From Deltaproteobacteria bacterium (lineage in GTDB: Bacteria > Myxococcota_A > Polyangia > Fen-1088): DNA of 64,000 nt. This document shows positions 17,449-54,386 of this stretch, one piece after another. Position 1 is the stretch's first letter; each line of letters opens with the position of its first letter. The position numbers and the translations under genes were made by a program. The stretch is from contig JANRKS010000034.1 of assembly GCA_033763315.1 (NCBI GenBank), forward strand, positions 320,355 through 384,354, read 5' to 3'. The notes below the pieces were generated by a model. It was given only the letters and a program-made list of their open reading frames with translations, was not told where the DNA came from and ran no database searches.

Positions 17449-18909
17449 CTAACGCTGAGAGAGTGTGAACACAGATGGTTCGTCCAAAGTGATCCTGAAC
17501 GCCTCGTCATCGCGCCTCAATTGCTTGTCGGCCCGCTCACCGTTGCGGCTGGGCGTTGTGACCGTGAGGTTCCATTGCCCACTTAGCAATCGCCTTCCGA
17601 GTGGGACCTCAACAGTCATAGCGTTGTTGGCGACGCCTACCACAGTGACCCTACCTTTGTGAACGAAGGTTTGCACCGTGAGGTCGGCGTTGTCACTGGT
17701 GGAGGCCACGCGCTGGGCTCCCGGGCGAACAAAGCGATAGAGTTGGCGTTGGGCGTAGAACCTCTTCTTGGGCGCATAGACGTGATTCTCGTTGGCCACC
17801 AGGCCGTAGAAAGTCATCTGCTTGTCGTGATCATGATAATTATCGAAGGCATCCCACCAAAGGCCGGCTGTGGCGCCCATTCCCAATAGATCGAGGATGC
17901 GTTGGGTACCCTTGATACAAAAGCTTGTCCACTCGTTGGCGGCTGAGCGATCTTTGTCGTTCAGGTCGCCGTACTCGCTAATCCAGATGGGTACATCACG
18001 GAAGGCGCTGGCGCCGATACGCTTGAAGTGATCGGCGTAGCCCTCGGCCAACTGGCCGTACTGGTGTAGTGTAAAACGCGCCACCCGTTTCATCAGATCT
18101 GGCTCAGAAAAGATCGGCGAAAAATAGTCTGAACCGGCCCCCGCCTGGTCAGCGAACACGACGTTCACATCTGCCAATCCCTCACGATCGAGAGCGGTCA
18201 GCACCTCTTTCATGAGGCGTGGCGCTTCATCAGGATCCACGCGTGGTCCCTCAATCGGATAACAGTTTGTTTCGTTTAGGGGGCCGAACCATTCAAAGCG
18301 CACCTTTGCTTTGTTCCGCGCGTAGGACGCCAATGCCACAACGGTTTCGGCGAACTCGGCATACATATCGCTACGCAGATGCGAAGGACGGTTGGTGAAG
18401 AGGTGCACTGGGTTCGGCTCTTTGCGACACGTGCCAGGCACCAAAGGCTTGCCCTTGTCGTCCAACATCCAGGCGGGCACTGTGCCGCTGACGTTCAATA
18501 GCACCCGGATGCCCCGTTGATTGAAGGCACGCATGGCCGCCCAAGAGGCCTCGAATGCGGCCGTTGAAAAGCGATCATCGAACACTGACCAGTTGATGTG
18601 GTGCGGATCCCCGTCGTCGTTCTGAATTTCCCAGTCGCTTTGCCCGAACGGATCGAAGCGAACGATCGACGCACCCAGATCGTCGATCAGCAGGTCAAGC
18701 AACCGCTTTTGTGCTTGGCGATAATACACGCCATTGAAGTTGACTCCGAACCCCTCGATCGTTTGGAACCTTTGCGTCGTGTCCACTTTCACGGTGGCCG
18801 TGGCAAATTCGGCTGCAAGTCCGGTTGTTGCGCTTTTTAGGAGAATCGCAGCCATAAGGGCGCCGATTGAAAGGTTCACGCGGCATTTTCGGCGAAACAG
18901 ACTTGCCAT
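17449..18909 (-). CDS. Secreted clan GH-A glycoside hydrolase, GH30-like
   Basis: Signal peptide; QRFQTIEGFG, PAWM, acid/base GPLNE, nucleophile IWISEYG, QLYRFVRPGAQRV; C-terminal beta-sandwich. Confidence 0.8.
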   Translation of the reverse strand: MASLFRRKCRVNLSIGALMAAILLKSATTGLAAEFATATVKVDTTQRFQTIEGFGVNFNGVYYRQAQKRLLDLLIDDLGASIVRFDPFGQSDWEIQNDDGDPHHINWSVFDDRFSTAAFEASWAAMRAFNQRGIRVLLNVSGTVPAWMLDDKGKPLVPGTCRKEPNPVHLFTNRPSHLRSDMYAEFAETVVALASYARNKAKVRFEWFGPLNETNCYPIEGPRVDPDEAPRLMKEVLTALDREGLADVNVVFADQAGAGSDYFSPIFSEPDLMKRVARFTLHQYGQLAEGYADHFKRIGASAFRDVPIWISEYGDLNDKDRSAANEWTSFCIKGTQRILDLLGMGATAGLWWDAFDNYHDHDKQMTFYGLVANENHVYAPKKRFYAQRQLYRFVRPGAQRVASTSDNADLTVQTFVHKGRVTVVGVANNAMTVEVPLGRRLLSGQWNLTVTTPSRNGERADKQLRRDDEAFRITLDEPSVFTLSQR

Positions 18910-19104
18910 CTGACGTGTGTACGCGTTTGGCGCCTTTGTTGCAAGCGCTAGGCGTGGCGGTTGAAGTGGTGATGCCTCGGTTGCTCACTGCGCTAAGCAA
19001 TCTGCGCAGCCTTGCGTGTCTTATCCAACGACGTTGCCAAGAAGACGAAGCGATACGCTTTGAGACGAGACGGCGGCCTGCGCTCGACGTTTCGAGGTAC
19101 CCAT

Positions 19105-20841
19105 ATGAAAGCCCGACAGCCTGTGGTTCTGGGTTTGTTGTTCTGTGTGCTGCCCGTCGGGTGCATGGGGCGCGTGAGCGACCATGGTGAAGCGCTTAAT
19201 GAGGGCGAGTCTGATCCGGCCGCGGGCGCCTCCGGAGGCGCCGCTGGAACATCGCCTTCGGCCGCGGGCGGTCGCTCGCAAACGCCCCCCGTGCCAGAGG
19301 TTCCGGGCCAACCATTCGACGATGGGATCGCGGGCAACTTACGCCGGCTGACCATCCGCGAGTACCGGAATACCATTGTTGATCTGCTGGGTACACCGGA
19401 GTACCTGCTTTACCCCACCGAAGGCTTCGCCCCCGACGGGCGAGCATGGGTTTTCGAGAACAACCGCAACCTACCCACGAGCGCCGCCATCGCCTTTGAC
19501 TATCTGGCGGCGGCAGAGGTGTTTGCCGAAGACAGCGTGACTCATCGTTTCGAAAGCCTGTCTACGTGCGATTTTGCAAAGACGGAAGACGCGTGTGCGA
19601 AGGACTTCGTGGTGCGCGTGGGCCAGCGCGCCTTGCGGCGTCCTTTAACCGACCTCGACACGACCGAATTCATGGCTTTGTACAAGGCAGCGCGTGCCGC
19701 GCCTGAGGCGTCATACAGGGAGGCCACGCGCGTCGTGCTGACGGCTTTCCTGCAAAGTCCCGAGTTTCTCTATCACTTCGAGGTGGGCGATGAACCTCGC
19801 GCGACCACGGCCAGCAAGACGCCATTGACCGATTACGAAGTGGCGTCGCGACTGTCGTATGCGTTTTGGTCCTCGATGCCAGACAGCGAACTGTTTGCGG
19901 CCGCGGCGCGTGGCGAGCTGCGAACGGTGGAGGGCATCACGAAGCAAGTGAATCGCATACTCGCGATGCCACACACGCGCGAAACCCTGATGAATTACTT
20001 CGCGCAGTGGCTCGATTTCGATCACACCATGGAGCTTTACAACAACCCTGCTTATGGTGAGGTCAGACCGTTTATCATTCCTGAGATCAAGGCCTTCATA
20101 CAATCCGTTGTTTTTGACGGTGACGGTCAATTGGCAACGCTGCTCAAGGCTCCCTATTCGTTCCTGAACGAGCCACTGGCGGCGATCTATGGCGTGGACG
20201 GCCTCGAAGGTGACACCTTGAAGCGCACGGCGCTTGATCCCAACCAACGTGCCGGCCTGCTGACGATGCCTGTCTTTCTCGGCAACACTTCCAACCCCGA
20301 CGGTTCGATTCGCCCGGTGATTCGGGGCAAATACGTGCGCCAGCGGTTGCTGTGCCAAGAGATGCCGCCACCACCACCCGAGGCAAACACCAAAGCCCCT
20401 GAGGTCAAAGAAGGGTCGACAACGCGGCAAAGGGTGGAGCAACACGCGGCAGATCCCTTCTGCGCTGGCTGCCACCGCCTGATGGATCCCATCGGTTTGA
20501 TTTTTGACCGTTATGACAGCTTGGGCCGGTATCGGCCGGCTGGTTCTGATGGCACGGACGATCAAGGCGAGCTTGTGGCCACGGATGTAAATGGCAAGGT
20601 CAATGGTGTGCGTCAGTTGGCTGAACGCCTCAGCATGAGCAAGGATGTGCAGGCGTGCGTGGCTTCATCCTGGTTTCGCTTTGCGCTCGGACGCTCGGGG
20701 GAGGATCCATCGGATGAGATGCCGCTGCGCGCTTTCATAGATGCCTTCGCACGTAGTGGTGACATGCGCGGTCTGTTTCGTGGTCTCTCCACCTCCGATG
20801 CATTTCGCTTCATACAAGCACCAAAGGGGCAGTGCCGATGA
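19105..20841 (+). CDS. DUF1587/1595/1592/1588/1585 heme-c lipoprotein, module 1
   Basis: Lipobox PVGC; LRRLT..EYRNTIVDLLG, RALRRPL, LQSPEFLY, YEVASRLSY.FW.SMPD, RAGLL, RGKY.R.RLLCQ..PPPP, CAGCH.LMDPIG, YD.LGRYR. Confidence 0.9.
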   Translation: MKARQPVVLGLLFCVLPVGCMGRVSDHGEALNEGESDPAAGASGGAAGTSPSAAGGRSQTPPVPEVPGQPFDDGIAGNLRRLTIREYRNTIVDLLGTPEYLLYPTEGFAPDGRAWVFENNRNLPTSAAIAFDYLAAAEVFAEDSVTHRFESLSTCDFAKTEDACAKDFVVRVGQRALRRPLTDLDTTEFMALYKAARAAPEASYREATRVVLTAFLQSPEFLYHFEVGDEPRATTASKTPLTDYEVASRLSYAFWSSMPDSELFAAAARGELRTVEGITKQVNRILAMPHTRETLMNYFAQWLDFDHTMELYNNPAYGEVRPFIIPEIKAFIQSVVFDGDGQLATLLKAPYSFLNEPLAAIYGVDGLEGDTLKRTALDPNQRAGLLTMPVFLGNTSNPDGSIRPVIRGKYVRQRLLCQEMPPPPPEANTKAPEVKEGSTTRQRVEQHAADPFCAGCHRLMDPIGLIFDRYDSLGRYRPAGSDGTDDQGELVATDVNGKVNGVRQLAERLSMSKDVQACVASSWFRFALGRSGEDPSDEMPLRAFIDAFARSGDMRGLFRGLSTSDAFRFIQAPKGQCR

Positions 20842-22088
20842 GTCAGCCAATCGTTCGCCGCGATCTTCTACGCATGGCTGGGTTGTCGACCATGGCCTTG
20901 CCGCTCGGCGCTTTATGCCAAAGCGCGAGGGCCGCCGCCGCGTTTCCAAAACGGCTTGTCATTGTGACCAGTGCCAACGGAACGTCGATGCAGCACTTTT
21001 GGCCAACGACGGGCGTCACGGGTAGCCGCATTCTTGAGCCTCTGGCGCCACACGCCAGCAAGCTTGTGGTGATGCGCGGCATCGACGCCGAGTCGGCGCA
21101 CAAAGCGCCTGTGCCTCCAGACCATGATCCCGATTACCGCAACCTGCTTACGGGCTGGCAAGCCGTTCCTCAGGGAACCGATTATGTGATCGCTGGCATC
21201 TCCATTGATCAGCACATTGCCAACGCCGTGGGGCGCCAGACCAAGCTTGCGTCATGGCATCTCGGTGGCGGATCGCGGTTGCATAGCCGCGGCTTCAACC
21301 AGCCCATCGTTTCGGACGAGAACCCCAAAGCGGCGGTCGACCGTTTGTTTGGGGATCTGGCCATCGGTGCGTCTGAGCTCACCAAACAGCGTCGCGAGCG
21401 CGCTGCCGTGATGGACGTGGTCGCGAATCGGATGAAGCGGTTGCGATGCCAATTGGGTGCCGCCGACCAACAAAAGCTTGATGCACATTTCGAAGCCGTG
21501 AACGATGTGCGGCTTCGCACGCAATTGGTCTTGCCCGCGGCCTGTAAAGCGCCCGCCGTGGCCAAGGATATGGATTACCCAACAACCATTCGCACCTTCA
21601 TGGATTTGACTGTGGCGGCTTTGGCGTGTGACGCCACGCGTGTCGTGACCGTTGATCTCGACAATAGCCACACGCAGCATGGCTTCATCGACTACCCGGG
21701 CTTGGATGTGCCGTACCACGCAGGCATTGCCCACGATGGTAGCGTCGACGGCTTTAAGAAGGTGGCCGAGATCGAACGCTGGGTGGCCGCCCAGTTTGCG
21801 TATTTGTTGTCTCGCATGGATGGCGTCAAAGAGGGCGATAAGACCCTTCTCGACAATAGCGTTGTTGTGTGGCTAAAGGAGCAGTCCAATGGCAGCACCC
21901 ATGCGCGACGAGACTATCCTGTGGTGCTGGCGGGAGGCGGCGCCGGCGCCATACGAACAGGTCGAACCCTGCATGCCCAGGGCAAACCACACAGTGGCTT
22001 GTTGATCTCCTTGGCCAACGCGATGGATGTGCCAACCAAAACGTTTGGCGATCCACAGTTTTCGAACGGGCCCCTGCCCGGGTTGTAA
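20838..22088 (+). CDS. DUF1552 (HxxSH-type) Tat-exported protein, module 1
   Basis: VRRDLL Tat motif; PKRLV, LEPL, SIDQ.IA, KLDAH, ACDATRV, YHAGIAH, TLLDNS, GSTH, PVVLAGG; ATGA coupled to the upstream gene. Confidence 0.9.
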   Translation: MSQPIVRRDLLRMAGLSTMALPLGALCQSARAAAAFPKRLVIVTSANGTSMQHFWPTTGVTGSRILEPLAPHASKLVVMRGIDAESAHKAPVPPDHDPDYRNLLTGWQAVPQGTDYVIAGISIDQHIANAVGRQTKLASWHLGGGSRLHSRGFNQPIVSDENPKAAVDRLFGDLAIGASELTKQRRERAAVMDVVANRMKRLRCQLGAADQQKLDAHFEAVNDVRLRTQLVLPAACKAPAVAKDMDYPTTIRTFMDLTVAALACDATRVVTVDLDNSHTQHGFIDYPGLDVPYHAGIAHDGSVDGFKKVAEIERWVAAQFAYLLSRMDGVKEGDKTLLDNSVVVWLKEQSNGSTHARRDYPVVLAGGGAGAIRTGRTLHAQGKPHSGLLISLANAMDVPTKTFGDPQFSNGPLPGL

Positions 22089-22221: not shown

Positions 22222-23322
22222 ATGTTCATGCGCTTCCGAAAGAATGCACTTCGTGTATTGTTAACAGTGGTTATCTGGGGCGGGCTGGTTGGGCTTTGGG
22301 CGTGCGCTTCGTCAACGGAGTCCTGTAGTGGCGACTGTGAAGAAGGTGGTCAGACGGGAGAAGGTGGGCAAGGCGGCGAGGGTGGCTTTGGTTCCGGTGG
22401 CTCGAGTGAGCAAGGCGGAAAAGGGGGGAACGCCACGGGCGGCAGCGCGGCCTCAAGCGCTGGCAAAGGCGGCACACCAGCCGGTGGCAACGGCACATCC
22501 TCCGGCGGCAGCGGCACATCCTCCGGCGGCAACGCCGGCAGCGTTCCCGATGCGGGCGTCGGCGGAAGCTCACCCGATGGTGGCGCGATCAACAACGATC
22601 CGAAGTCGAAGAATTGGGTGTTCTTGCTGTTGGGGCAGTCGAATATGGCGGGGTCATCTCCCATGGAGAAGGAGGATCAGTCGGCGCCCGCGCGGGTTTG
22701 GAAATTGAGCCGGGACAAAGTCTGGGTGCCTGGGGCCGAAGGCTCGAACATCAACCCCTACGTTAAATTCACACCGACCAACTATTTTTCTCCCCTGGGG
22801 GAAGACAGCTTGAGCCCCAGCCGAACGTTCGCCATGGATGTTCTGGCCAGCACTTCAGACGCGGCCGTCAACATCTACATTGTGAACGCCGCCGTCAGCG
22901 GTTCGGCCATCGAAAGCTGGGAACCTGGCAAAGGTGAGAATTACCAGTTCATGTTGCCCTACCTCGAGGAGGCAATGAAGAAGGGTGTTGTGCGAGGGTT
23001 CCTCTGGCACCAGGGTGAGGCAAATGGCGGGATGGCTTCGCGCACCTACGCCGATCGACTCAAAGCCATCTTGGCCGCCATTCGCGCCAAGGTTGCGGAT
23101 CCTTTGCTGCCCATGGTGGCAGGCCAGGTGGGCATCACGGCCGATGGTAACGTCAACGGCGCATTGAATCTCATAAAGCAGGAGGATGCCCGGTTCGGCA
23201 TCGCCTCGTGCGTGGGCCTGACAAAGAAGGTGCCCGGCGACGCTCATTACAGCTCGAGTTCAGAACGCGAATTTGGCAAGCGCTACGCCGCCGCGTGGCT
23301 CGCAATCCAATCGAAACCCTAA
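22222..23322 (+). CDS. Lipoprotein carbohydrate acetylesterase (SASA/CE6-like SGNH) with Gly-rich linker
   Basis: Lipobox LWAC; Gly/Ser linker; FLLLGQSNMAG, GFLWHQGE, GDAHY, GKRYA. Confidence 0.85.
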   Translation: MFMRFRKNALRVLLTVVIWGGLVGLWACASSTESCSGDCEEGGQTGEGGQGGEGGFGSGGSSEQGGKGGNATGGSAASSAGKGGTPAGGNGTSSGGSGTSSGGNAGSVPDAGVGGSSPDGGAINNDPKSKNWVFLLLGQSNMAGSSPMEKEDQSAPARVWKLSRDKVWVPGAEGSNINPYVKFTPTNYFSPLGEDSLSPSRTFAMDVLASTSDAAVNIYIVNAAVSGSAIESWEPGKGENYQFMLPYLEEAMKKGVVRGFLWHQGEANGGMASRTYADRLKAILAAIRAKVADPLLPMVAGQVGITADGNVNGALNLIKQEDARFGIASCVGLTKKVPGDAHYSSSSEREFGKRYAAAWLAIQSKP

Positions 23323-23337: not shown

Positions 23338-25008
23338 ATGCAGTTTCAACCTCGGTACATACTATGGGTGTCGGCACTGGCTGCCGCGTGTTCTGGCTCG
23401 GTGTCCGGTCCGGGTTCGGGAAATGGTGGTCAAGACGATGGCGAGGGCGGTGAGGGCGGGGGCAGCCTGCCGCCTGAAGTTGCCGAGGCGTGCTCAGATC
23501 AACCGAACGTTGGTCCGAGCAAGTGGCGACGTCTTTCCACCACACAATACAAGAACGCGGTCACCGACCTGCTTGGCGTTGCACCGGATACAAAAGGGTT
23601 CTTGTTCGATTCCACCACGGGGCCATTCGCCACCAATACGACGCTGAATCCACAAGATGTGGACATCGCACAGTACGCTTCGGCGGCAGAGGCATTGGCT
23701 GCCAAAGCCACGGCCGATGTCAACAAGCTCATCGATTGCGATCCCCGCACGCAAACCGAGGATGCATGCGCAAACCGCTTCATCGACAACTTTGCCACGC
23801 GTGCCTTTCGTAGGCCGATCGAATCGACCGAGCAAAGCAGGCTTCGCGAGCTCTACAAGCTTGGAAAAGCGCAGAGCTTCACCGACGGCATTCGTTTGGT
23901 TTTGCAGGCCATCCTGCAATCGCCGAGCTTCTTGTACCTGGTTGAGCGCGGCCAAGGCGATGGCAAAGGCATCGTACCGCTGACCGACTATGAGGTTGCG
24001 GCACGCCTTTCGTTTACGCTCACGGCCACTTTACCTGACAGTCAATTGCTTGCGGCTGCCAAGGACAAAAAGCTTTCAACCGCGCAAGGCCTTCGATCAG
24101 AGGCCATGCGCCTGATGAATTCGCCCCGCTTTAACGAAGCCTCTATCACGTTTGCCACAGAGCTACTGGGCTTGCCCTCACTCACGCGCAGCGGATTTGT
24201 CACCAAATCGGGCGGCGATGCGGCCACGTTCGACGATTCGATGCGACAGGCGATGCTGGACGAGCCGAGAAAGTTCGTGGATTACGTGATGAACAAGGGC
24301 AGCGGTACGGTGGAAGAGCTGTTCTCGGCGCCATACGTTTTTCCCGCCGGCCCCTTAACCAAAATCTACGGCCCTTCGCTTTCGCCTGATGGTGACGGAC
24401 GCGCGGTGATCTCCGACGGCTCACGTCTGGGCCTGTTGAGCCTGGCTGGTGTGCAAGCAAGTCATCCGCACGTGCCCACAATTTATGGTGCGGTGGTTCG
24501 CGGCAATCTTGTCCGTCGCGAACTGTTGTGCATGACAATCCCACCGCCCAATGTGGCTGTGAAATTTGAGGCACCCCCCAATGCGAGTCAAATGTCGCCA
24601 CAACAGCTGCTGCGAGCGCATCAGGACAACGACACATGCCGTCCCTGTCACGAGCTGATGGACCCCATCGGCTTTGGCCTTGAACGCTACGATGGCGTAG
24701 GAAGGCTAAAAGAAAAGAATGGCGATGGTTCGCAAGTGGATTCGTCCGGCGAGATTTTAGGTCTCGAGAACGAATACAAATTCTCTGACACACAAGAGCT
24801 TTTGAAGACGTTGGCGACCATGCCAGAAGTCAGACGCTGCATGGCAACTCAACTTGTACGCTTCTCACTTGCACGCGAACCAGACGACGCGGATGCGTGT
24901 GCTGCACGGAAGCTGCAAAGCGTTCTTGCCGACGGCAAGGGCAATCTTCGAGACGCCATTTTGACCCTCGTCACGAGCGATGCATTTCGATATCGAAAAG
25001 GGGAATGA
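23338..25008 (+). CDS. DUF1592/1588-family heme-c lipoprotein, module 2
   Basis: GAGGA RBS; lipobox AAAC; WRRLS..QY.N...DLLG, RAFRRP, LQSPSFLY, RELLC..IPPP, CRPCH.LMDPIG. Confidence 0.9.
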   Translation: MQFQPRYILWVSALAAACSGSVSGPGSGNGGQDDGEGGEGGGSLPPEVAEACSDQPNVGPSKWRRLSTTQYKNAVTDLLGVAPDTKGFLFDSTTGPFATNTTLNPQDVDIAQYASAAEALAAKATADVNKLIDCDPRTQTEDACANRFIDNFATRAFRRPIESTEQSRLRELYKLGKAQSFTDGIRLVLQAILQSPSFLYLVERGQGDGKGIVPLTDYEVAARLSFTLTATLPDSQLLAAAKDKKLSTAQGLRSEAMRLMNSPRFNEASITFATELLGLPSLTRSGFVTKSGGDAATFDDSMRQAMLDEPRKFVDYVMNKGSGTVEELFSAPYVFPAGPLTKIYGPSLSPDGDGRAVISDGSRLGLLSLAGVQASHPHVPTIYGAVVRGNLVRRELLCMTIPPPNVAVKFEAPPNASQMSPQQLLRAHQDNDTCRPCHELMDPIGFGLERYDGVGRLKEKNGDGSQVDSSGEILGLENEYKFSDTQELLKTLATMPEVRRCMATQLVRFSLAREPDDADACAARKLQSVLADGKGNLRDAILTLVTSDAFRYRKGE

Positions 25009-26583: not shown

Positions 26584-27495
26584 ATGAAGTTCATGATCAA
26601 TTTTCGTATCACGTGCCTGTGTTTGTTGGCATGTGGGGCATGCACCGAGGATTCCAACGACATCGGGGAGAAACGTGACGCCGGCGCCGTTTCCGACGCC
26701 GCCACAGATTCCTCCAAGATCTCGGACGCGCAATCGGGCGACTCAAGCCCGCCTAAACAGGACGCCAGCGGTGATACCGACGCAAGCCAGTACACCGCCG
26801 TTGTGGGCGCGAGGTGTGCATTGCCCAACCGTTTGGGGGCCATTGAGGTGCAGACGGTCCAAGGCAAGCTTTACGCCTCGTCATCGGTCTTCACTGAAAA
26901 GAACCCAGGCCTCGGAAGCTGGAAAGTGCAGGACAGCGATTGTCGCTTTCACCAACAGTCCCCGCAGCCCACACCGTTTATGCCGAAACGCCCCAAAGAC
27001 GCCAAGCTTGTGCTTGTCGCCAACGGGCAAGAACAAACGTTCCTGGCAGGTTCCGAGCGAGGGGAGATCGATGGCGAGATAATCCTACCGGGCCAAGCAT
27101 TTTCAGGCCGCTTCTCGTGGTCGGGAGTCACCGTCTCCTTCCCGGCCATCACGGTGCCAGCGGAGCTTGTGGGGCTCAAGGGTAAACTGAAGGGATCGAG
27201 CGAGTCGCCTGAACAGCTAGACATCACCTGGGACAAGCCCAACGCCAATTCACAAGTTCACACCATTGTCCCCATCAATCACCACGCGGGGGGCGATACC
27301 TTCACCGAATGCGACGTACCTTCAAGCAAGGGAAATCTTAAAGTGGCGGGGGCGATGTTGAAGCCGTTGGCGGTGATCACAGGGCTTGAGTTTCAAGGCA
27401 TCAACCACGTCCGCTTTGCAGCGGCGGAAACACCTTTAGGGTGCATTGAGATCCAATTCTTCACGCGGTTCATTGGCATGCCGCCCGCGCCCTAG
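26584..27495 (+). CDS. Hypothetical lipoprotein
   Basis: Lipobox-like LLACGAC; DAG/DA-rich linker; several Cys; QVH..VPINHHAG motif. Confidence 0.7.
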   Translation: MKFMINFRITCLCLLACGACTEDSNDIGEKRDAGAVSDAATDSSKISDAQSGDSSPPKQDASGDTDASQYTAVVGARCALPNRLGAIEVQTVQGKLYASSSVFTEKNPGLGSWKVQDSDCRFHQQSPQPTPFMPKRPKDAKLVLVANGQEQTFLAGSERGEIDGEIILPGQAFSGRFSWSGVTVSFPAITVPAELVGLKGKLKGSSESPEQLDITWDKPNANSQVHTIVPINHHAGGDTFTECDVPSSKGNLKVAGAMLKPLAVITGLEFQGINHVRFAAAETPLGCIEIQFFTRFIGMPPAP

Positions 27496-30417: not shown

Positions 30418-30486
30418 CGTGTGGAACGTAACATACGAGCGCATGCTGAGCCGCGCGGAGATCCGAGACAGTGTTATGCTCGGTAG

Positions 30487-39502: not shown

Positions 39503-39592
39503 CGGCGTTCACTCCATGTGTGTGTGAACCTAGGGCTAGCGTTCGTTATCACGTACCGCTTCACGCCCTGGTTCAAACAAGGAGATCCCTCC

Positions 39593-45580: not shown

Positions 45581-46999
45581 ATGCCCATCACGTTCAACCG
45601 ACGACGACTTCTGGAAACCTTTGGTATGGGTGGCGCGGCGTACTTTTTACCGAGCCTCCGCCCAGCGCACGCCGCCACCCCGCCTCAGCGTGTGGTGATT
45701 TTCTACAGCCATCAAGGCACATTGCCATGGATGTGGAAGCCCACGGGTACGCGGACTGATTTCAAACTCGGGCCGTTGCTTGAGCCCTTGGAGCCCTACA
45801 AAAAAGACCTCATCTTGTTTGACGGCGTGGATTTCAAGGCCCTGGAACTCCCCAATGGCAAGGGTGGCAACGATGGCCACGCCACAACACAAGCCTGCTC
45901 GATGACGGCGAACGTTCAGATCAACCACCTCACGAACGATCCCAAGTCGCGCGGCAAAGGGCCCTCGTTCGATTGGTTCCTGGGCCGTAAGCTCGAGGCC
46001 GCCAATGGGGGCCGGCCACCCACACCGTTCGGCGAGCAACGCTTCCGTGTGTACGATCGTTTGGGTGATAACCCCAACTGGTACCGTCCGCTTGAAGACG
46101 ACAAGAACCAATGGCTGTTGCCCTCGGTGGATCCGGGGCGCTCGTTCGATACGTTGTTTGGCGCGGCCATGCAAATGAGCGCTGGCGGCGATACGGCGGA
46201 CAACGCGCGCATTCTGCAACGCAAGAGCGCTTTGGATTTTGCCGTGGGCGAATTTGGGCGTGTGGCGAACAAGGTGGGTACGTTCGAGAAGCAGCGCCTC
46301 GATCAGCACGCTGAACTCGTTCGCGGGATCGAGAAGCAACTGCAAACGCGCGCGGACAGCGCCAAAAGCTGCACAGCCCCGCCTCGTCCGCAGGGCGCCC
46401 GGTCCGCGGCTGGTAACTGGGATTTTTCGTGGAAGGGCTTTAGCGACCTTTCAGTGGCCGCGCTGACCTGCGACTTAAGCCGCGTTGTTTTCATCCATGT
46501 GGATGAAGTTGCGCCAAAGCTTTACGGCGGCATCAATTCCGGCAGTCTGGGCGGCATCGACAACCTGCATGACTTGGTTCACGCCATCAACGTTGGTAGC
46601 AAAGACAACCAAGACGCGAACCGGTTGAAGACCGTGAAGGGTTACTATGGCGCCCACACACCCGTCTTCAAAGAGCTGCTCGATAAATTGGCCGCGGTGA
46701 AGGAATCGGATGGCAAGCGTCTGCTTGACCACACTGCCGTGCTTTGGTGTGGCGAACTTCCGCAACCCGGGCATTCCCCGCACAACAACAAGTGGCTTAC
46801 GGCGGGCAGCTGCGGTGGCAAACTCAAGACCGGCCAGTGGCTTAACTATGACGGCGATGGCATCGTTTTCGGTGGCGTGCGCAACAACGTTCCATCTAAC
46901 GGTGACGTCTTCACCACGCTCGCCAAAGCCATGGGCGTTAATGAATCTTTCGGCGCACCAGGTGCCACGAAAGGTCCGATCTCCGACGCCCTGGTTTAA
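45581..46999 (+). CDS. DUF1552 Tat-exported protein, module 4
   Basis: NRRRLL Tat motif; PQRVV, LLEPL.PYK, DGH, RLDQH, TCDLSRV, LHDLVH, LLDHT, PGH. Confidence 0.9.
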   Translation: MPITFNRRRLLETFGMGGAAYFLPSLRPAHAATPPQRVVIFYSHQGTLPWMWKPTGTRTDFKLGPLLEPLEPYKKDLILFDGVDFKALELPNGKGGNDGHATTQACSMTANVQINHLTNDPKSRGKGPSFDWFLGRKLEAANGGRPPTPFGEQRFRVYDRLGDNPNWYRPLEDDKNQWLLPSVDPGRSFDTLFGAAMQMSAGGDTADNARILQRKSALDFAVGEFGRVANKVGTFEKQRLDQHAELVRGIEKQLQTRADSAKSCTAPPRPQGARSAAGNWDFSWKGFSDLSVAALTCDLSRVVFIHVDEVAPKLYGGINSGSLGGIDNLHDLVHAINVGSKDNQDANRLKTVKGYYGAHTPVFKELLDKLAAVKESDGKRLLDHTAVLWCGELPQPGHSPHNNKWLTAGSCGGKLKTGQWLNYDGDGIVFGGVRNNVPSNGDVFTTLAKAMGVNESFGAPGATKGPISDALV

Positions 47000-47186: not shown

Positions 47187-48536
47187 CTACTCCGAGTAGA
47201 TCTCGGGCAGGCCGCCGTTGCACCACTGCGCATCGCCGACGGTGTCTTTGTTGAGGCCAATCGCCTTTTGCACCGACACCCAAAGATCAGCCAAGCTCTT
47301 GTTGCTTGCCTTGCGTGATTCTGCCAAGGCCGCCCCTTGAAAGAAGTCTTTTCCGGGCGACGAGAACGGGTAAACGATGTTTTGGTTGAGCTTGATGCCC
47401 AAGTTGCGACCTCCCGCCAGCACGAACACCATATCGTTCTGGTTGTGGTTCTCTGAGATACCACTGCCCCACACCACCACCGTGTTGTTCAGGGCACCCA
47501 CGGACTTCATTTTCGCCACGAAATAGGCGAAGCGATCAGCGTACCACTTGTCGATGTCGATCCACATGCTTTGCGGGGCTGAACCGTGACTTACGTCGTG
47601 GTGGCCGGGCGCAGGTGCGACGGGGTTGAGGCCGCCCGAATCACGTTGCCACACCAGCGTTCCGACACGACGCGAGCCACACGCCATCGCTGTGGCCGCG
47701 ATGTCCAGCAAGGCCTCGCCGATGGCTTGAAACTTCGGCACATTGCCAGCCGTGGCCTCGGCGGCGCTGGCTTTGGATGCGAGGCCGGCCGGGGCGCAAG
47801 TGCCCTCCATGGCAACAGGCTTGTTGTTGGCGAGCTTGTTTTCGATCTCGCGGATCGACGTGAGATAGAGATCCAGGTTTTCGGCGTCTTTGCCCACGAG
47901 CCGGCCTTGCAGACGCTGGATGTCACCTTCCAAGAAATCAAGCACGCTCTTGCGCTTTTCAAGCAGCAGGTCCGTTCCGCCCGCGGTGCCTCCCGGCATG
48001 ATGCCGCCCGAGAACGCCTCAAGGTGCGCAAGTGTTGGCGAGAAGATCTTAGTGTCGGCTTTTCCCGGCCCTACCCAGCTTACCTGCCCGTAAATGTCGC
48101 CTGTGCCTCCCCCGGGCGGCACGCCCAGCGTCAACGGCGGCGTGTTCAGGAACTTTCCGAGCTCATGGTCGAAAGACTGCGCGTACACCGTGGTCTTGTC
48201 ACCGGAGCCGTGCACCATCGACAACAGTTTGCACATATCTTCGTGGCTGTTGAAAGTGGAAGACGTCTTATTGCAAAGGCCGCGTATGACCGTGATGTCT
48301 TCCTTATAGGGTGTGAGCTTCGCCAACGAGCTCTTGAACGTCCACGCGCTGCCGGAGCCTTGTCCACCGAACGCCGAGCGCACGAAGCCATTGGGCGTGG
48401 CAACGAGAAAGAAGTTGCCAGCCGGGGCCGCATCAGCGAGCCGATTCTTTACAAATGGCGATAGTAAGAATGTGCCGGCACCGATGCCACGAAGAAGTCT
48501 GCGGCGCGAAATTTGATGACGAGTTGTTTCCCACAT
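47187..48536 (-). CDS. DUF1552 Tat-exported protein, module 5
   Basis: SRRRLL Tat motif; PNG, L.PYK, NSH, SFDH, KSVLD, ACGSRRV, HHDVSH, ENH, VLAGG. Confidence 0.88.
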   Translation of the reverse strand: MWETTRHQISRRRLLRGIGAGTFLLSPFVKNRLADAAPAGNFFLVATPNGFVRSAFGGQGSGSAWTFKSSLAKLTPYKEDITVIRGLCNKTSSTFNSHEDMCKLLSMVHGSGDKTTVYAQSFDHELGKFLNTPPLTLGVPPGGGTGDIYGQVSWVGPGKADTKIFSPTLAHLEAFSGGIMPGGTAGGTDLLLEKRKSVLDFLEGDIQRLQGRLVGKDAENLDLYLTSIREIENKLANNKPVAMEGTCAPAGLASKASAAEATAGNVPKFQAIGEALLDIAATAMACGSRRVGTLVWQRDSGGLNPVAPAPGHHDVSHGSAPQSMWIDIDKWYADRFAYFVAKMKSVGALNNTVVVWGSGISENHNQNDMVFVLAGGRNLGIKLNQNIVYPFSSPGKDFFQGAALAESRKASNKSLADLWVSVQKAIGLNKDTVGDAQWCNGGLPEIYSE

Positions 48537-48575: not shown

Positions 48576-50234
48576 TTAGCGGGCCCGGCTTACGAAACCT
48601 TCATCCGTAACCCCCGCCACCATCAGCCCCTCGATGTTGAGGCCGTCGTTTGCGAATTTGCGGCCTACGTCTCGTGTCATACACGAGCTTTCGGCATCCT
48701 CGATCGTGGTTCCCATGACGTAGGTCATGTAGCGCTGCACGAAGCAATTTCGTCCGCTGGGACTTGCCAAAATTTGATCCACCAGGTCGCCGAGGCCATC
48801 GAACTTTCCCGACCAATCGTTGGCACCTTCGATTTCACCGTCGGTGGCGATGGCGCGGCCGTATTCGTTCTCGCTTCTAAATTTGCCTTTGTCGTCGTAT
48901 CGCTCGAAGGGAAAGCCCAGCGGCTCAAATTGGCGGTGGCAGGCAGCGCATCCGCCGCGCTCTTGCACGAACACGTCCCATTTTTCCCGCTGCGTCCATT
49001 CTTTCGGCGTTTGGGGAAGCTGCATGATCAAGTCCCCCGCGTTGGGCGGTGGCAACGGTATGCCTTGGCACAAGAACATCTCTCGTATGACCTTGCCTCG
49101 GTGGATGGGGCCGTGCGTGGCCATCAGCCATCCTGGTTGGGTAAAAACACCAAAGCGTTCCCCCTCTTTTAGCTGTGTGCGCTTAAGCTCCGTGCCGCCG
49201 CCGACGCCGTAAGCGGGGGCGAGATTCGAATCCACAAAGGAAACAGGTGCCTTGTAAAGCGTAGTGAGGGTGGGCTCTGAACTTTGCAGAACGTCCTTGG
49301 CAAAGGCATCCACTTCGGCAATGGCTGAGTTGACAAGGCCATCGCCCAGATCGTTGCGCTTGTCTTCCAACTTATAAAGGCCCATCTGCCAATATAGAAA
49401 CTGCGCAAACTTCGTTCGCGCCTCATCCGTCTTCACCAGGCCTTTGGCAAACGACTCGCGCTCCTTTGGATCCGACAAGCGCCCTTCTTCGGCGGCCGCC
49501 AGAAGCTCATCCGATGGTGGCCGATCGGTGAGGCCGTAAGACAAGGCCGACGCGATTTCATAGTTATCGAGTTTGGTCTTCGCTTCGCCGTTGCCCAATT
49601 CGAAACGGTAAAGCATGTGCGGTGACATCAAGAGGGCCTGAACCAGAAGTTCAGCCGCACCTTGAGCCTTCAAGGTGCCCACCTTCGCTTTGTGCAGGTC
49701 AACGAACCGCTGCTGCTCTTCCGCAGAAAGGGGGCGCCGGAACGCCCGTTTTCCAACGCTGCCGACGAAGTCCTTTACGCAGCTTTCGCTCACGGAGCTG
49801 GCGAGCATGCAGGGCGTGCGTTGTGAAAGAGCCTTAACAGCTTTGGCGGCAAACAGTTCTGTTTGGTTGAAGACGGCATTCGTGAGGGGGCCGCCCAAGA
49901 AGGCGCTTTGCGCGCCATTGGCGAATCCAGTTTTCGCATCACGTGGGTCGGCTGGGAAGCTCTTGGCGTCGAACTCATTCAGGCCAAACGCCGCGTTAAC
50001 AGTCCGTTTGTATTGTTCCGGCGTTAACCTCCAAATCCGCGGCGCAATCTTCTGCTCCTCGCACGCGCGCTCTTCCGGGGGGCCATCTCCGCCGCCACCG
50101 CCGGCACCGCCCTCGCCGTCGGCGGGGCCGCCGCTCACGGAGCCTGCGCACGCCACCAACGACACCAAAAGACCGACCGTGAAGGGCTTGTGGGCGGTTT
50201 CGACGCCACGACACCAAGCATGAGCCAAAGACAT
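48576..50234 (-). CDS. DUF1592/1588-family heme-c lipoprotein, module 5
   Basis: AAAGGAG RBS; lipobox LVAC; IWRLTPEQY, RAFRRPL, LMSP..LYRFE, RGK.IR..FLCQ..P.PP, CAACH...EPLGF.FERYD. Confidence 0.9.
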   Translation of the reverse strand: MSLAHAWCRGVETAHKPFTVGLLVSLVACAGSVSGGPADGEGGAGGGGGDGPPEERACEEQKIAPRIWRLTPEQYKRTVNAAFGLNEFDAKSFPADPRDAKTGFANGAQSAFLGGPLTNAVFNQTELFAAKAVKALSQRTPCMLASSVSESCVKDFVGSVGKRAFRRPLSAEEQQRFVDLHKAKVGTLKAQGAAELLVQALLMSPHMLYRFELGNGEAKTKLDNYEIASALSYGLTDRPPSDELLAAAEEGRLSDPKERESFAKGLVKTDEARTKFAQFLYWQMGLYKLEDKRNDLGDGLVNSAIAEVDAFAKDVLQSSEPTLTTLYKAPVSFVDSNLAPAYGVGGGTELKRTQLKEGERFGVFTQPGWLMATHGPIHRGKVIREMFLCQGIPLPPPNAGDLIMQLPQTPKEWTQREKWDVFVQERGGCAACHRQFEPLGFPFERYDDKGKFRSENEYGRAIATDGEIEGANDWSGKFDGLGDLVDQILASPSGRNCFVQRYMTYVMGTTIEDAESSCMTRDVGRKFANDGLNIEGLMVAGVTDEGFVSRAR

Positions 50235-50667: not shown

Positions 50668-50793
50668 AAAAAACTCCTTATGGCGGTCTGCAGGCAAACT
50701 CCTGCCCCAGACCATGAGTGCGAAACGATTCCCCCCTAGAACGCCGCCAACGGGAAAACGAGGCGACAAAACCAACATTGGCCTGCGTAGAAA

Positions 50794-50807
50794 CTCACGA
50801 TCGTTAA
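50794..50807. promoter_or_regulatory. Candidate operator CTCAC-GATC-GTTAA
   Basis: Minus strand reads TTAACGATCGTGAG, similar to the 43715 site; 2 mismatches to consensus. Confidence 0.45.
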
Positions 50808-50857
50808 CCAGGATTGGTACGCCGATCCGTCGCAGCCGCGCCGCGAAGCCGCTGGCG

Positions 50858-53800
50858 CTATTTCTTCAGGGACGAAAGATACGCGACGAGATCACGTAGT
50901 TCCCGTTTGGTGAGAATGCTTCCGAAGCCATCGGGCATACCCGATGCGCCTGGCTCTCGGCCGGCGATTTCCTTCTTTTCAAGCGAAAGTGGGCCTTCTT
51001 CAACAGAATCAAGCATCAGGGCTTTCGTCGTTTCCCGCTTCACCGTGCCTCCATGAATGGAGCCGCTTTTCATCGTGACCAGAACGGATTCGAAACCCTT
51101 CGCAAAGTGCTTACTCGGATAAACCACCGCCTCAAGCAGGTATTCACGAGAGCGGCGGCGGCCCACACCGCTAAGCTCCGGGCCCACTTCTGCACCATGG
51201 CCCTCAACACTGTGGCAGCGGCGGCATTGCACCTGCGTATGGAATGTAAACACACGCTCGCCCAACTCCGCGTCACCGCCGCCAACAGCCTCGACAAAGG
51301 GCCCCAAGTCGGTTTGTGGCCTGGCTTCTTCATACTGCGCGATCTTGGCTTCAAGCGTGGCACTGCCCTTGAGCTTGGCAGCCTCAAGAACGTCCAGGAT
51401 CAGCGGCTGGGGCAGTTTGTTCGCAAGCAGATCATCCAACAAGGCGGACAACCGTTGCGAAGCCTTCGGATCTTGCAGCCCCACCAACAGTCCCACGGCG
51501 GCCTGCTTTTCCACGATGTCTCCGCTGCGCAGCGTCTCGTCTATGAGGCTCACAGCTCTTGCCGGTTCGGCTTTCACTTGCGCCTTTAATCCCCACAGGC
51601 GCACTTGTGGCGATGGATCCTTGGCGGCCACCGGAAGCACTTGCGCCAACTCGGGCGCCTCAAAGTCCGAAAGCGCCTTAAGGGCGGCCATCCGCACCTC
51701 GGGCCCATCCCAGCGATTGATCACAGCTTGCGCCAACGCCGGTGTGGCGTTGTGCAGCTGCATTTGTGCCGCGGTAGCCGCTGCGGCAACGAACACAACA
51801 GGCTGTTTGGGCATCAATAGCTTGTCGAGCACACGCGTCAACGCGGACGCTGCGACGGCAGAATCCCGCAGCTGCTTGGAAAGCAAAGGGCGGTGGTTTC
51901 CCGTCACACGATCTCTTGGTTGAGGCGACGCCCAAGAGCCCAAGGCAGTGACGGCTTCACGGCGCAGCTTCGCATCGACACCGCTATCCGTGGCTATTGT
52001 GGCTAGCAACTCCGCCGCGGCAGTTGTGCCCTGGCGGAAGTTCGCATGAATCACGCGCGCTGCAATGGCGTTGTCCTTGAGCAGCCGCGGATCCTTGCCG
52101 AGCTCCGCTAATGTGGATGTGGCTTCTTCAATTGGCACGTCGTTGATGGCGCGTGCGGCTTCCCGCACCACCAACAGGTCCTTGTCTTGAAGAAACGCTG
52201 AAAGCAGACCAGATTCGCGCCGACGCAAGGCCACAACCGCGGCCAACCGCACAGACACCGAAGGGTGCTGCGCCAGTTGGGCAAGAGCGTCGACAGATGC
52301 CCCAGCGGTCAGGACCTGAATGCCGGCATGTCGAACAAAAGGATCACGATCCGCATTTTGTTCAATCATGGCAATGGCCGCAGCGGTGGTGTCAGGCGCA
52401 GCAACACCCAAGCGTGCCAGGCTTTGAGCCGCAAAGAACCGGACGCGTTTATTTTCGTCAGATAGCGCCTGCGTGAGCGCCGAAACGAAATCCGCGGACT
52501 TGTGATCTCCCAAAACCTTGGCCGCCTGCGCGCGCGCTTCATCGTCGGCTCCCGGCTTCGCTTGCAATCGGGCCACGAGCGCCGTCTGCACGTCGTGCGA
52601 TTCGTTTGCATTCGCACCAGGCGCTCCACGCAAAATCTGACCCAACCCCCAAATCCCATGCAACTGTGCAAGCAACGGCTTGCCAGGGCCAGACGCCTGC
52701 ATCAGCAGGTCACTCCTCCCCGTGCGCACAAGTTCAAACTGAGCCTCCATGCGCACACGCACGTCAGGATGGGACAACAATTTGGCGAGCGAATCGGGCG
52801 ATCGATCCCTCCAGTCACCAGCAAGAATCGCTTGAACGCTTTCGCCATTGCTGGGCACCGTGGGCTTGCTATCGAATACACGATGTATGCGCCCCTTGCC
52901 TGTACCGGCCCAACCCATGACCCAATCTGAAACGTAAAGGGCACCATCGGGGCCGAAATCGACGTCCGTGGCCAAGACGCCCCAAGCAAATTGCTTGCGG
53001 TCCACAAGCTTGAAGCTTACGCCGCGCGGCTCAACGCGGAAGCTGTCCACGCCGCTGCTGCTGGGTTGCCCGCGAAAGTCGGCCAAAAAAAAGTGGTTGC
53101 GGTAATTCTGCAGCTGCGCACTGCCAGGATGATAGGTCAGGCCTGAAGGGCCGCTTGAGATGTTATCCACCGGCGGCAGAATGTAGGCGGCCTGTCCCGT
53201 GAATTGTGGCGCCCACATCTTTTCAGCGTTCCAAGGGCCGCGCTGCACGGGACGGTTCAGGTATTGGAAACCCACGCGCCATCCATAGTCAGCGCCCAGC
53301 ACCAAGTGAATGAAACGGGCCTTGTCACCGCCGTCCGAATTGTTATCGCCTGTGAACAAATTGCCGAACTGATCGAACGCAAGTTCCTGCGGGTTGCGCA
53401 GGCCTTCGGCAAAGACCTCAAGACGGCTTCCGTCGAGCTCGCAGCGAAAGACAGCGCCCCGATCAGGAAGCGACAGCACTTTGCCTTCGCGCGTTTTCAC
53501 GGACGCGCCGCGATCGCCAATGCTGAAGTACATGCGGCCATCGGGGCCCAAGCGTAGGCCGTGCATATCGTGGCCCATAAAGGCGTAGCGAACGCCGTAG
53601 CCCGTGGACATGATTTCCCTCTTGTCGGCGGCGCCATCATTGTCACTGTCGCTGACACGCCAAACGTTTGGGATGTTTGTGATCCACACCTGTCCCTGCC
53701 GCGCGAGCACGCCCGACATCAACCCATCCATAGGTTGGTTGAACCCGCCAGCAAATAGCGTTGATTGGTCGGCCACCCCGTCGCCATCAACGTCCACGAG

Positions 53801-54283
53801 GCGCTTGACGATGTCCGAGTCTTTCGAAAAGCGATCCAAATCGCCTTCGAAGTATGTGCGAACCAACCGCTCTCGCTCGGCAACCGTGCGCGCCGCCAAC
53901 TCAGCATCAATGATCTCGTCATCGATCTGAGCCAACCGTTGCGGTGAGGCTTTGCTTCTGAACGCAGCCGAGGGCCAGCTATTGGCGCTGCGATTGTCTA
54001 AGACCGCCGAGCCAATGCGCACCCCTTCGGCCACAAACATGCGCCCCTTTTCATCGAAGGAAAACGCAACGGGGTTCTCCAGCAACGGCTCAGCGGCCCA
54101 CAGCTTCGCTTGCACGTCCGTTTGCAGCTTGATCTGCCTGGTGGCCTGACTGCCCTCAGCGTTCGCAGCCTGAGACGGCTTGATTGATTCGGGGGGCGCC
54201 GCGTAAGCCGGGGAGGCAGCGAGCCCAATAAACAAAATCAGTGAGGTCAGCTTCCTCAAAGAACACAGGGGAGTGCGATGCAT
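50858..54283 (-). CDS. PVC-type membrane-bound dehydrogenase beta-propeller, HEAT repeats and C-terminal heme c domain
   Basis: Signal peptide; WAAEPLLENPVAFSFDEKGR.FV.E, D.DGDG.AD, H.L..GPDGR.YF, GLRNPQE.AFD..G.LF..DN, DFGPDGALYV.DW; HEAT repeats; GD...G..VF...CRRCH...G..VGP.L, SGMP. Confidence 0.9.
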   Translation of the reverse strand: MHRTPLCSLRKLTSLILFIGLAASPAYAAPPESIKPSQAANAEGSQATRQIKLQTDVQAKLWAAEPLLENPVAFSFDEKGRMFVAEGVRIGSAVLDNRSANSWPSAAFRSKASPQRLAQIDDEIIDAELAARTVAERERLVRTYFEGDLDRFSKDSDIVKRLVDVDGDGVADQSTLFAGGFNQPMDGLMSGVLARQGQVWITNIPNVWRVSDSDNDGAADKREIMSTGYGVRYAFMGHDMHGLRLGPDGRMYFSIGDRGASVKTREGKVLSLPDRGAVFRCELDGSRLEVFAEGLRNPQELAFDQFGNLFTGDNNSDGGDKARFIHLVLGADYGWRVGFQYLNRPVQRGPWNAEKMWAPQFTGQAAYILPPVDNISSGPSGLTYHPGSAQLQNYRNHFFLADFRGQPSSSGVDSFRVEPRGVSFKLVDRKQFAWGVLATDVDFGPDGALYVSDWVMGWAGTGKGRIHRVFDSKPTVPSNGESVQAILAGDWRDRSPDSLAKLLSHPDVRVRMEAQFELVRTGRSDLLMQASGPGKPLLAQLHGIWGLGQILRGAPGANANESHDVQTALVARLQAKPGADDEARAQAAKVLGDHKSADFVSALTQALSDENKRVRFFAAQSLARLGVAAPDTTAAAIAMIEQNADRDPFVRHAGIQVLTAGASVDALAQLAQHPSVSVRLAAVVALRRRESGLLSAFLQDKDLLVVREAARAINDVPIEEATSTLAELGKDPRLLKDNAIAARVIHANFRQGTTAAAELLATIATDSGVDAKLRREAVTALGSWASPQPRDRVTGNHRPLLSKQLRDSAVAASALTRVLDKLLMPKQPVVFVAAAATAAQMQLHNATPALAQAVINRWDGPEVRMAALKALSDFEAPELAQVLPVAAKDPSPQVRLWGLKAQVKAEPARAVSLIDETLRSGDIVEKQAAVGLLVGLQDPKASQRLSALLDDLLANKLPQPLILDVLEAAKLKGSATLEAKIAQYEEARPQTDLGPFVEAVGGGDAELGERVFTFHTQVQCRRCHSVEGHGAEVGPELSGVGRRRSREYLLEAVVYPSKHFAKGFESVLVTMKSGSIHGGTVKRETTKALMLDSVEEGPLSLEKKEIAGREPGASGMPDGFGSILTKRELRDLVAYLSSLKK

Positions 54284-54372
54284 GGGCCCTTAAGCTTAAC
54301 GGTAGCGAGTCCGTTATCGCCAGCTCAAGGGCACGCTCCACCAACGCTTCGTGCGTGCTCACGTCACTCGAG

Positions 54373-54386
54373 ATAACACCTGTTAA
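54373..54386. promoter_or_regulatory. Candidate operator ATAAC-ACCT-GTTAA
   Basis: About 90 bp upstream of the dehydrogenase; minus strand reads GTGAACTTAACAGGTGTTAT. Confidence 0.6.

Follow-up and report, generated by a model that had tools for sequence, protein, structure and literature searches.

Paired heme-motif lipoproteins and Tat-exported DUF1552 proteins: a predicted two-subunit envelope enzyme family with a partial link to glycans

The PSD and PSCyt domains (Studholme et al., 2004, as cited in later work) occur together in PSCyt3/PSD "group III" proteins, whose genes adjoin DUF1552 genes, reach high copy number and can be fused to carbohydrate-binding modules (CBMs); the part of the source that describes them gives no function (He et al., 2017, PMC5615132). 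Here, we analyze five gene pairs of this kind in a stretch of 64,000 nucleotides (hereafter the window) from a Deltaproteobacteria bacterium of the class Polyangia (assembly GCA_033763315.1, contig JANRKS010000034.1, positions 320,355 to 384,354). We call A the DUF1592-type lipoprotein with a CxxCH motif, and B the DUF1552 protein exported by twin-arginine translocation (Tat). A first-pass annotation of the window had called the adjacency common and its function unassigned, in agreement with the published account.

Relatives of these genes have been described in other settings. Cbp2D of Cellvibrio japonicus has the architecture CBM2-X158-FN3-X183-DUF1587-X132, and X132 is fused to CBM2, CBM26 and CBM73 in other proteins (Branch et al., 2021, PMC8981238). 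Both cbp2D and cbp2E are required for cellulose use; deletion of cbp2D is more harmful than loss of the lytic polysaccharide monooxygenase (LPMO), and those who reported this suspect that cleavage proceeds by a new mechanism (Kakacek et al., 2025, PMC12542752). Cbp2E or an LPMO has been proposed as the partner of Cbp2D, with no mention of a DUF1552 gene in the sections concerned (PMC8981238, PMC10916295, PMC12542752). In Teredinibacter, X132 is fused to a Cip1-like X122 domain and a pyrroloquinoline quinone (PQQ)-dehydrogenase-like domain (Rajagopal et al., 2024, PMC10916295), and a CBM2-DUF1592 protein is tabulated in a lignocellulose community study (PMC6004670). A module built on DUF1501 was suggested to hand electrons on to sugars or proteins (Kamneva et al., 2012, PMC3542564), and a DUF1501-DUF1800 pair travels with bacterial chitin synthases (PMC5122149).

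We propose that A and B pair a lipid-anchored heme protein with a Tat-exported redox metalloenzyme bearing a four-histidine site, and that a sizeable subset of the pairs, including the window copies, acts on sugars or glycans. We put the probability of this reading at about 0.47.

Two-gene units in the window and across the genome

Inspection of open reading frames (ORFs) and Pfam families bore out the five two-gene units of the first-pass annotation, at the positions it gave and in the order A then B (Table 1). All five A carry PSD5, PSD4, PSCyt3 and PSD2 (DUF1595/1592/1588/1585) and a single CxxCH each, four carry PSD3 (DUF1587) in addition, and their 552-603 aa hold PSD/PSCyt3 domains only. 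The signature of group III, PSCyt3 and PSD4 in one protein and usually PSD2/3/5, is found in each of them. A lipobox pattern was matched in four; A3, missed by the pattern, has a plausible VVPAC. PF07586 is recognized in every B (E 1e-25 to 5e-56), and each B begins with a twin-arginine leader. Read from the sequence, the genes of pair 1 share a 4-bp ATGA overlap, those of pair 2 overlap by 4 bp or lie 2 bp apart, and the gaps in pairs 3 and 4 are 1 bp and 34 bp; ORF coordinates give 39 bp for pair 5. These junctions fit the earlier claim of 4-bp overlaps or gaps of at most 40 bp. A scan for promoters and terminators did no better than chance.

The window pairs are, by their sequences, old paralogues, because the five A are only 23-32% and the five B only 18-30% identical to one another. 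Every copy has a nearer relative elsewhere in the genome, and no supported clade of fewer than 30 members unites two of them. Recent tandem duplication is ruled out by this low identity, the closer relatives elsewhere and the tree positions.

The genome (7.63 Mb, 91% complete) has 130 PF07586 and 120 PF07631 matches, and searching it with our own profiles returned 122 A and 134 B. An adjoining B accompanies 118 of the 122 A, in A-then-B order 113 times and B-then-A five times, with 117 distinct B involved. The 118 pairs occupy ~5.4% of the genome, five of them in the window. Genome-wide, the RR motif is present in 113/118 paired B, a single CxxCH in 113/122 A and a heme motif in all 118 paired A; CxxxCH replaces CxxCH in three A (C16:165929, C7:210573, C34:302720). 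Some ten DUF1552 genes (frames of 496-598 aa, for example C16:155808-157385 and C1:307506-309302) have no adjacent A, and the four histidines discussed below are intact in nine of them. The genome also has eight sister pairs (L136-L143) of a two-CxxCH protein and a DUF1501-type gene, Pfam having been verified on one gene per kind. Three cytochrome c assembly genes were found. Of 61 genomes in the class, 29 contain at least one match, and first-look candidates range from 0 to 152 per genome.

Alignments and trees were built from 89 pairs; of the 118, 90 satisfied filters on length and motifs, and one of these was removed for sharing its B. The A and B distance matrices are correlated (Mantel rho 0.66, reached by 0/999 shuffles), the nearest paralogue of an A has a partner within the top three of its B in 56/89 cases (3 expected), and 25 of 37 supported splits of the A tree recur in the B tree, against a shuffled maximum of 1. 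Judged by these distances and trees, the partners co-evolve. Inter-protein covariation over the same pairs showed no excess (maximum z 7.1 vs 5.9-7.7 in shuffles).

Fold, histidine site and predicted complex

In its model (pLDDT 88), B4 has an alkaline-phosphatase superfamily fold. Its best match is ENPP4 (Z 16.8, rmsd 3.5, 248 aligned) and the second a carrageenan sulfatase (Z 16.5); Foldseek reaches the superfamily at E 7.6e-5, and the fold matches listed are all nucleotide pyrophosphatases/phosphodiesterases (NPPs), sulfatases, phosphonate hydrolases, LtaS/EptC or PafA. Searches of the PDB by sequence with A4, B4 and the B profile returned nothing significant, and the ESM Atlas gave matches only at 0.81, with no family attached.

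The first-pass annotation had inferred a His-ligated metal site in each pair, and the conserved histidines of B number four. In the 89-pair alignment, H67 and H365 are invariant, H297 is kept in 88/89 and H301 in 87/89 (B4 model numbering, residue 1 at base 45680), and all four are present in the B of 109 of the 118 pairs. H67 falls in the nucleophile register of sulfatases (HxxGxxxxLTG in B vs CxPSRxxxxTG), where B has His and no Ser, Thr or Cys, although the CxPxR register is weakly supported. It aligns with an invariant His of DUF1501 (prob 71), which in turn aligns weakly with the sulfatase Cys. The first-strand Asp of alkaline-phosphatase and sulfatase enzymes is absent. E359 aligns with the aspartate of the sulfatase SDNG motif (prob 55), and Glu or Asp stands there in 64/89 B. 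H297, H301 and H365 we take to be the equivalents of the first-metal ligands of alkaline phosphatase. The four His apparently replace the usual nucleophile and carboxylate ligands, and B very probably holds a metal site.

A4 is modeled as a mostly helical protein (pLDDT 93). When this model was searched undivided into domains, Foldseek found nothing at E<=0.001, and the best VIA hit was a small helical bundle at Z 6.4. The A alignment has no invariant Met or His that could serve as distal heme ligand. Mean column identity of the A and B alignments is 19-29%, while the His and the heme motif are near-invariant.

The first-pass annotation had regarded each pair as a heterodimer, and the complex predicted for pair 4 points the same way, as does the co-evolution of the partners. 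It scored 0.79 against 0.05 for the best control, with at least 73% contact agreement between runs and partner pLDDT of at least 80. The mark used is reached by 116/157 solved and 2/215 mismatched pairs, figures that apply roughly here, where our own alignments and ligands were used. The confident interface sets an inserted hairpin of B (residues 176-217) on the N-terminal helices of A (46-154). Since neither sequence nor fold searches gave A a relative in the PDB, the predictor is unlikely to have reproduced a known structure, and we judge the complex to be highly likely. Heme occupancy, metal occupancy, redox chemistry, the direction of electron flow and the substrate are what we infer beyond it.

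Relation to Cbp2D, glycan genes and rival readings

A functional lead comes from Cbp2D. Along 96% of its core, A4 shares 28% identity (E 3e-40) with the "starch-binding protein" of Pseudoalteromonas Bsw20308, a strain listed with the architecture CBM26-X183-X132 in spreadsheet S1 of PMC8981238, and a cbp2D-like protein matches the A profile at E 2e-112. By these alignments, A is the X132 module of Cbp2D. A DUF1552 gene lies 16 bp 3' of the Bsw20308 gene. A DUF1552 with four His stands directly 3' in 16/16 relatives located in named genomes; five such genomes hold 18 PF07631 and 18 PF07586 proteins, 17 adjacent by coordinates and one at a contig edge. The Cbp2D-type loci were reached via a plasmid record. 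In Cellvibrio mixtus and Cellvibrio sp. 79, the order is CBM2-YceI (cbp2E-like), cbp2D-like and Tat-DUF1552, the cbp2D-like protein being CBM2-YceI-X132 with two CxxCH and the DUF1552 gene lying 45 bp away; the C. mixtus B retains the four His by eye. In published RNA-seq, CJA_2617, a "hypothetical" gene 3' of cbp2D, is up on cellulose as strongly as cbp2D (log2 fold change 2.21/2.02 vs 2.26/2.02 for cbp2D), and CJA_2870, 3' of cbp26A, is likewise induced (PMC12542752). A search for longer A homologues gave 71 proteins with PSD, PSCyt and cytochrome Pfam domains only and no CBM fusion. In a literature search that covered few subscription papers, we found no paper linking DUF1552 to Cbp2D or X132, or describing its fold or His site.

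Several loci vary this arrangement. A CBM2-GH5-YceI gene replaces cbp2E 5' of one cbp2D-like/DUF1552 pair (L185:8276-11137), GH denoting glycoside hydrolase, and a DUF2214 membrane gene precedes a cbp2E-like gene (L181:9630-10235); CJA_2614, at the latter's position, is co-induced on cellulose (PMC12542752). Directly 3' of DUF1552 there is a cytochrome b561 gene, or genes for cytochrome c and cytochrome b, in Cellvibrio (L188:1296-1847) and Sphingobium (L145:12955-14066), possible membrane electron links. In one Cellvibrio lineage (two genomes, G062/G063, one event; L190:3557-7028 and L191:3751-7202), the CBM2-X132 protein has lost its CxxCH and the DUF1552 protein three of its four His, apparently leaving a pseudo-enzyme pair that is still retained.

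In the genome itself, the link to glycans is real but partial. We compared 232 of the 239 immediate neighbors of pairs, the window's own left out, with 121 of 631 background genes, drawn from 40 stretches that are each separated from every pair by more than 10 genes. Strictly defined carbohydrate-active enzymes (CAZymes: GHs, polysaccharide lyases, carbohydrate esterases and CBMs) make up 15/232 flanks vs 1/121 background genes (p=0.014), and broadly glycan-related genes 44/232 vs 7/121 (p=0.0007); because the background is housekeeping-rich these enrichments are inflated, and the broad list was drawn up after a first batch of neighbors had been seen. Within three genes of an A or B gene, where 11% is expected, are 8/11 Cip1-like and 4/9 GH5-like genes, and no enrichment was seen for sulfatases (2/10) or GH43 (0/1). 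A strict glycan flank accompanies 12 and a broad one 36 of the 102 other modules, immediate flanks only. The window is unusually glycan-rich by comparison. Of the 10 TonB-dependent receptors in the genome, one lies within three genes of a pair. Among three named plasmid loci, the pair in Chondrinema is surrounded by sensor genes and the one in Sphingobium by cytochrome and oxygenase genes. Over 60 class genomes, related and hence not independent, copy number correlates weakly with GH3 (rho +0.39) and not with GH5 (+0.20, not significant). Flanks elsewhere encode a GMC oxidoreductase, three barrels of xylose-isomerase-like type and a 3-keto-disaccharide hydrolase (L017:31-1695, L072:3997-4851, L080:34-921, L001:4238-5140, L044:1885-2745), which recall the oxidative 3-keto route of glycoside cleavage.

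From these observations we propose a mechanism. Each pair would be a two-subunit envelope metalloenzyme. A would be exported by Sec, lipid-anchored, mostly helical and loaded with one c-type heme; B would fold in the cytoplasm, leave by Tat and grip the N-terminal helices of A with its inserted helical hairpin. On the alkaline-phosphatase scaffold of B, the nucleophile and carboxylate ligand would be swapped for His, and the resulting four-His site would be better suited to a redox metal (Cu or Fe) than to hydrolysis with Zn/Ca. B may bind and oxidize, or oxidatively cleave, the substrate, and the A heme could shuttle electrons between the His site and either quinone or further cytochromes. 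Many substrates would be covered by the 118 diverged pairs, with a substantial subset, probably including the window copies, acting on sugars or glycans. In Cellvibrio-type bacteria, the A module is fused to CBM, Cip1/X122, GSDH, YceI and cytochrome domains (Cbp2D, Cbp26A). Redox chemistry of the pair, taken alone, is probable.

Several points weigh against this proposal. The heme motif and the His site lie outside the confident interface, and no tool gave a heme-to-metal path; in nine of the 118 pairs, at least one aligned His is missing from B though the partner A retains its heme motif. The placing of H67 at the nucleophile position rests on the motif register and a weak two-step alignment, direct profile alignment of the B N-terminal part with three sulfatases having failed. 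As for glycans, 66 of the 102 other modules have no recognizable glycan flank, and within the family copy number runs against GH5 and GH3 (rho -0.64 and -0.72; not significant at n=6, where three genomes entered with their candidate counts). The Verrucomicrobia distribution is near-opposite to that of GHs (He et al., 2017, PMC5615132). The Sphingobium pair has no CAZyme in its surroundings. In the Cellvibrio case, CJA_2617 would be a DUF1552 gene only by the gene order of other Cellvibrio, and 753 genes are induced on cellulose, including the next gene, amy13A (PMC12542752). Co-secretion finds no echo in the secretome table of T. turnerae, which has an X132 protein and no adjacent locus tag (PMC12055684).

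The unflanked modules also fit a different view of the same two-subunit redox enzyme, as a general platform serving a wide range of small molecules, aromatics among them, with glycans a minority use; the glycan neighbors of the window would then be partly a shared island of accessory secreted genes. The Sphingobium pair, which adjoins genes for flavin/Rieske oxygenases, cytochrome b and cytochrome c, agrees with such breadth, as do genome G030, with ~152 candidates and 1 GH5, and genomes G008 and G051, with 0 matches and 14 and 25 GH5, and the inflated enrichment. Against it, the CBM2, CBM26 and CBM73 fusions tie such A members to polysaccharides, Cip1/X122 is fused to X132 in Teredinibacter and encoded beside pairs in this genome, and protein kinases, likewise accessory, are barely enriched within three genes of a pair (17/108, p=0.11). 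We find this view unlikely, if the best placed of the alternatives.

A second alternative comes from the phosphatase/sulfatase fold of B, which the first-pass annotation had missed. B would keep alkaline-phosphatase-type hydrolysis or transfer (phosphate, sulfate or similar, perhaps through a His-linked intermediate) and decorate or strip glycans, the A heme being structural or regulatory. All the listed fold matches belong to such enzymes, E359 aligns with the sulfatase SDNG aspartate, and the sister DUF1800-DUF1501 pair keeps company with chitin synthases. The nucleophile register without Ser, Thr or Cys and the missing first-strand Asp speak against it, as do the incomplete conservation of E/D359, the joint loss of heme motif and His in one lineage, and the fusions to YceI, cytochrome and GSDH domains. 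Such chemistry seems decidedly unlikely to us.

A non-catalytic role in surface binding or sensing (SusD-like capture or a scaffold, with a different ligand for each pair) could draw on the 118 diverged copies, the persistence of the Cellvibrio CBM2 pair after loss of heme motif and His, and the regulators near pairs (27/232 immediate flanks; Reg_prop sensor kinases 14/28 and LuxR-type regulators 15/32 within three genes), yet near-invariant His and heme motifs at such low column identity are typical of active sites and TonB-dependent receptors are few, which makes it very improbable.

The redox reading may be carried further. DUF1592(X132)/DUF1552 pairs would be an undescribed oxidative carbohydrate enzyme class, CJA_2617 the missing catalytic subunit of Cbp2D, and the more than hundredfold expansion an alternative to large GH arsenals, which would explain why pair and GH numbers tend in opposite directions. 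We consider this extension doubtful. It bears on the role of hundreds of "planctomycete-specific" cytochrome/DUF1552 modules and on the contribution of Cbp2D to growth on insoluble cellulose. Were DUF1552 bound to Cbp2D as its catalytic partner, a subunit would have been missing from studies of isolated cytochrome domains and from a six-gene E. coli reconstitution. A phosphatase scaffold would have been rebuilt as a four-His redox center and wired to a heme protein of new fold. A redox enzyme on the alkaline-phosphatase fold would be unusual. Should the reading fail, the window copies would be ordinary representatives of a large family that is already known.

Neighboring genes and comparison with known systems

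Most glycan-directed neighbors named in the first-pass annotation were recovered (GH30-like, CE6/SASA, GH2, Reg_prop kinase, two Cip1-like, PA14/fibro-slime, GH63-like and the heme protein of Planctomycetes-Verrucomicrobia-Chlamydiae (PVC) type); the "CBM-like" gene at 38636 is weak (E 0.03). The reported lack of transporters was upheld, with no TonB-dependent receptor in the window and no ATP-binding cassette (ABC) family among the 28 proteins scanned.

Table 1. Features of the window, with positions counted from its first nucleotide
Feature	Position	Strand	Description	Basis
GH30-like	17449..18909	-	glycoside hydrolase (AcXbh30A, E 1.7e-10), divergent from pair 1	
A1	19105..20841	+	DUF1587-1595-1592-1588-1585 (X132-type) lipoprotein, CxxCH aa 453	Pfam + motif
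B1	20838..22088	+	Tat DUF1552, four His present, overlaps A1 by 4 bp	Pfam, alignment
CE6/SASA	22222..23322	+	esterase, between pairs 1 and 2	
A2	23338..25008	+	lipoprotein, CxxCH aa 434	Pfam + motif
B2	25011..26381	+	Tat DUF1552, four His; alternative ATG 25005	Pfam, alignment
Lipoprotein	26584..27495	+	putative, 3' of pair 2, no known-family match	
GH2	27580..30444	-	glycoside hydrolase	
Sensor kinase	30487..33459	+	Reg_prop/Y_Y_Y beta-propeller	
Cip1/X122-like	34094..35095	+	immediately 5' of pair 3	
A3	35181..36992	+	divergent subtype, CxxCH aa 470; lipobox plausible, unmatched by pattern	Pfam + motif
B3	36994..38544	+	Tat DUF1552, four His	Pfam, alignment
Lipoprotein	38636..39454	+	putative, possibly CBM-like (weak, E 0.03)	
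Cip1/X122-like	39518..40627	+	second copy	
PA14/fibro-slime	40656..41675	+	PA14/fibro-slime protein	
GH63/MGH1-like	41727..43655	+	hydrolase, immediately 5' of pair 4	
A4	43810..45546	+	lipoprotein, CxxCH aa 456; model pLDDT 93, used for complex	
B4	45581..46999	+	Tat DUF1552, alkaline-phosphatase fold (model); H67/H297/H301/H365; hairpin 173-227 docks on A4 (predicted)	
B5	47187..48536	-	Tat DUF1552, four His	Pfam, alignment
A5	48576..50234	-	lipoprotein, CxxCH aa 429	Pfam + motif
PVC-type	50858..54283	-	DUF7133/GSDH-propeller-HEAT-cytochrome c protein, 5' of pair 5	

An IS66/IS3-type transposase fragment (33630-33995) separates the sensor kinase gene from the Cip1-like gene that follows it. 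A putative lipoprotein at 16035-17381 has tandem NGL-type hexapeptide repeats and no family match; of 11 members of a similar lipoprotein family, five are near pairs. The protein at 2378-3793 has no NCBIfam match and has CxxCH and His motifs reminiscent of copper monooxygenases, and two genes at 8959-12974 (minus strand) presumably resemble a DabA/DabB-type inorganic carbon pump. The Cip1-like family of this genome matches Cip1 and two further entries, which we take to be the Teredinibacter X122 structures.

SusC/SusD pairs organize the polysaccharide utilization loci of Bacteroidota, and the first-pass annotation had likened the A-B units to them. Both comprise ~100 diverged units of two genes, one of them for a lipoprotein, and in both glycan genes and beta-propeller sensors are often close by. 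Unlike SusC/SusD, the pairs have a heme motif and a His site and are mostly unflanked by CAZymes, and within the family they do not become more numerous with GH5/GH3, the genomes richest in these GHs having few or no pairs. Neither protein is a transporter, which rules out a SusC/D-type uptake role, and with receptors and strict CAZyme flanks so sparse the proposed organization was not sustained.

With the alkaline phosphatase superfamily, B shares the core fold (Z 15-17 over ~250 residues), and the C-terminal metal-ligand strand aligns. It differs in its ~10% identity, in the His in the nucleophile register, in the absence of the first-strand Asp and in the inserted hairpin predicted to bind the heme protein. 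DUF1501, paired with PSCyt2/PSD1 (DUF1549/1553), is homologous to B (prob 98) and has the first and last His in common; it apparently has Asp-x-x-His where B has His-x-x-x-His, and its partner domain set differs.

In Cbp2D/Cbp2E, Cbp26A and TERTU_2913/3803 (PMC8981238, PMC10916295, PMC12542752), A is homologous to DUF1587+X132, and a DUF1552 gene follows directly 3' of Cbp2D-like and starch-binding forms. The Cip1/X122 and GSDH-cytochrome domains fused in Cellvibrio and Teredinibacter proteins are separate neighbor genes in the window, and the window A have no CBM, YceI or X183 (no CBM2-YceI-FN3-X183 fusion was found) and would be lipid-anchored rather than released. Finally, domains and adjacency are common to our pairs and to group III with DUF1552, of which this genome has mostly minimal one-heme lipoproteins (113/122), not multi-cytochrome forms (PMC5615132). 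The pairing itself was known; the present analysis adds the modeled fold of DUF1552 and its four-His site, the predicted complex, and the equation of A with X132, with DUF1552 directly downstream.

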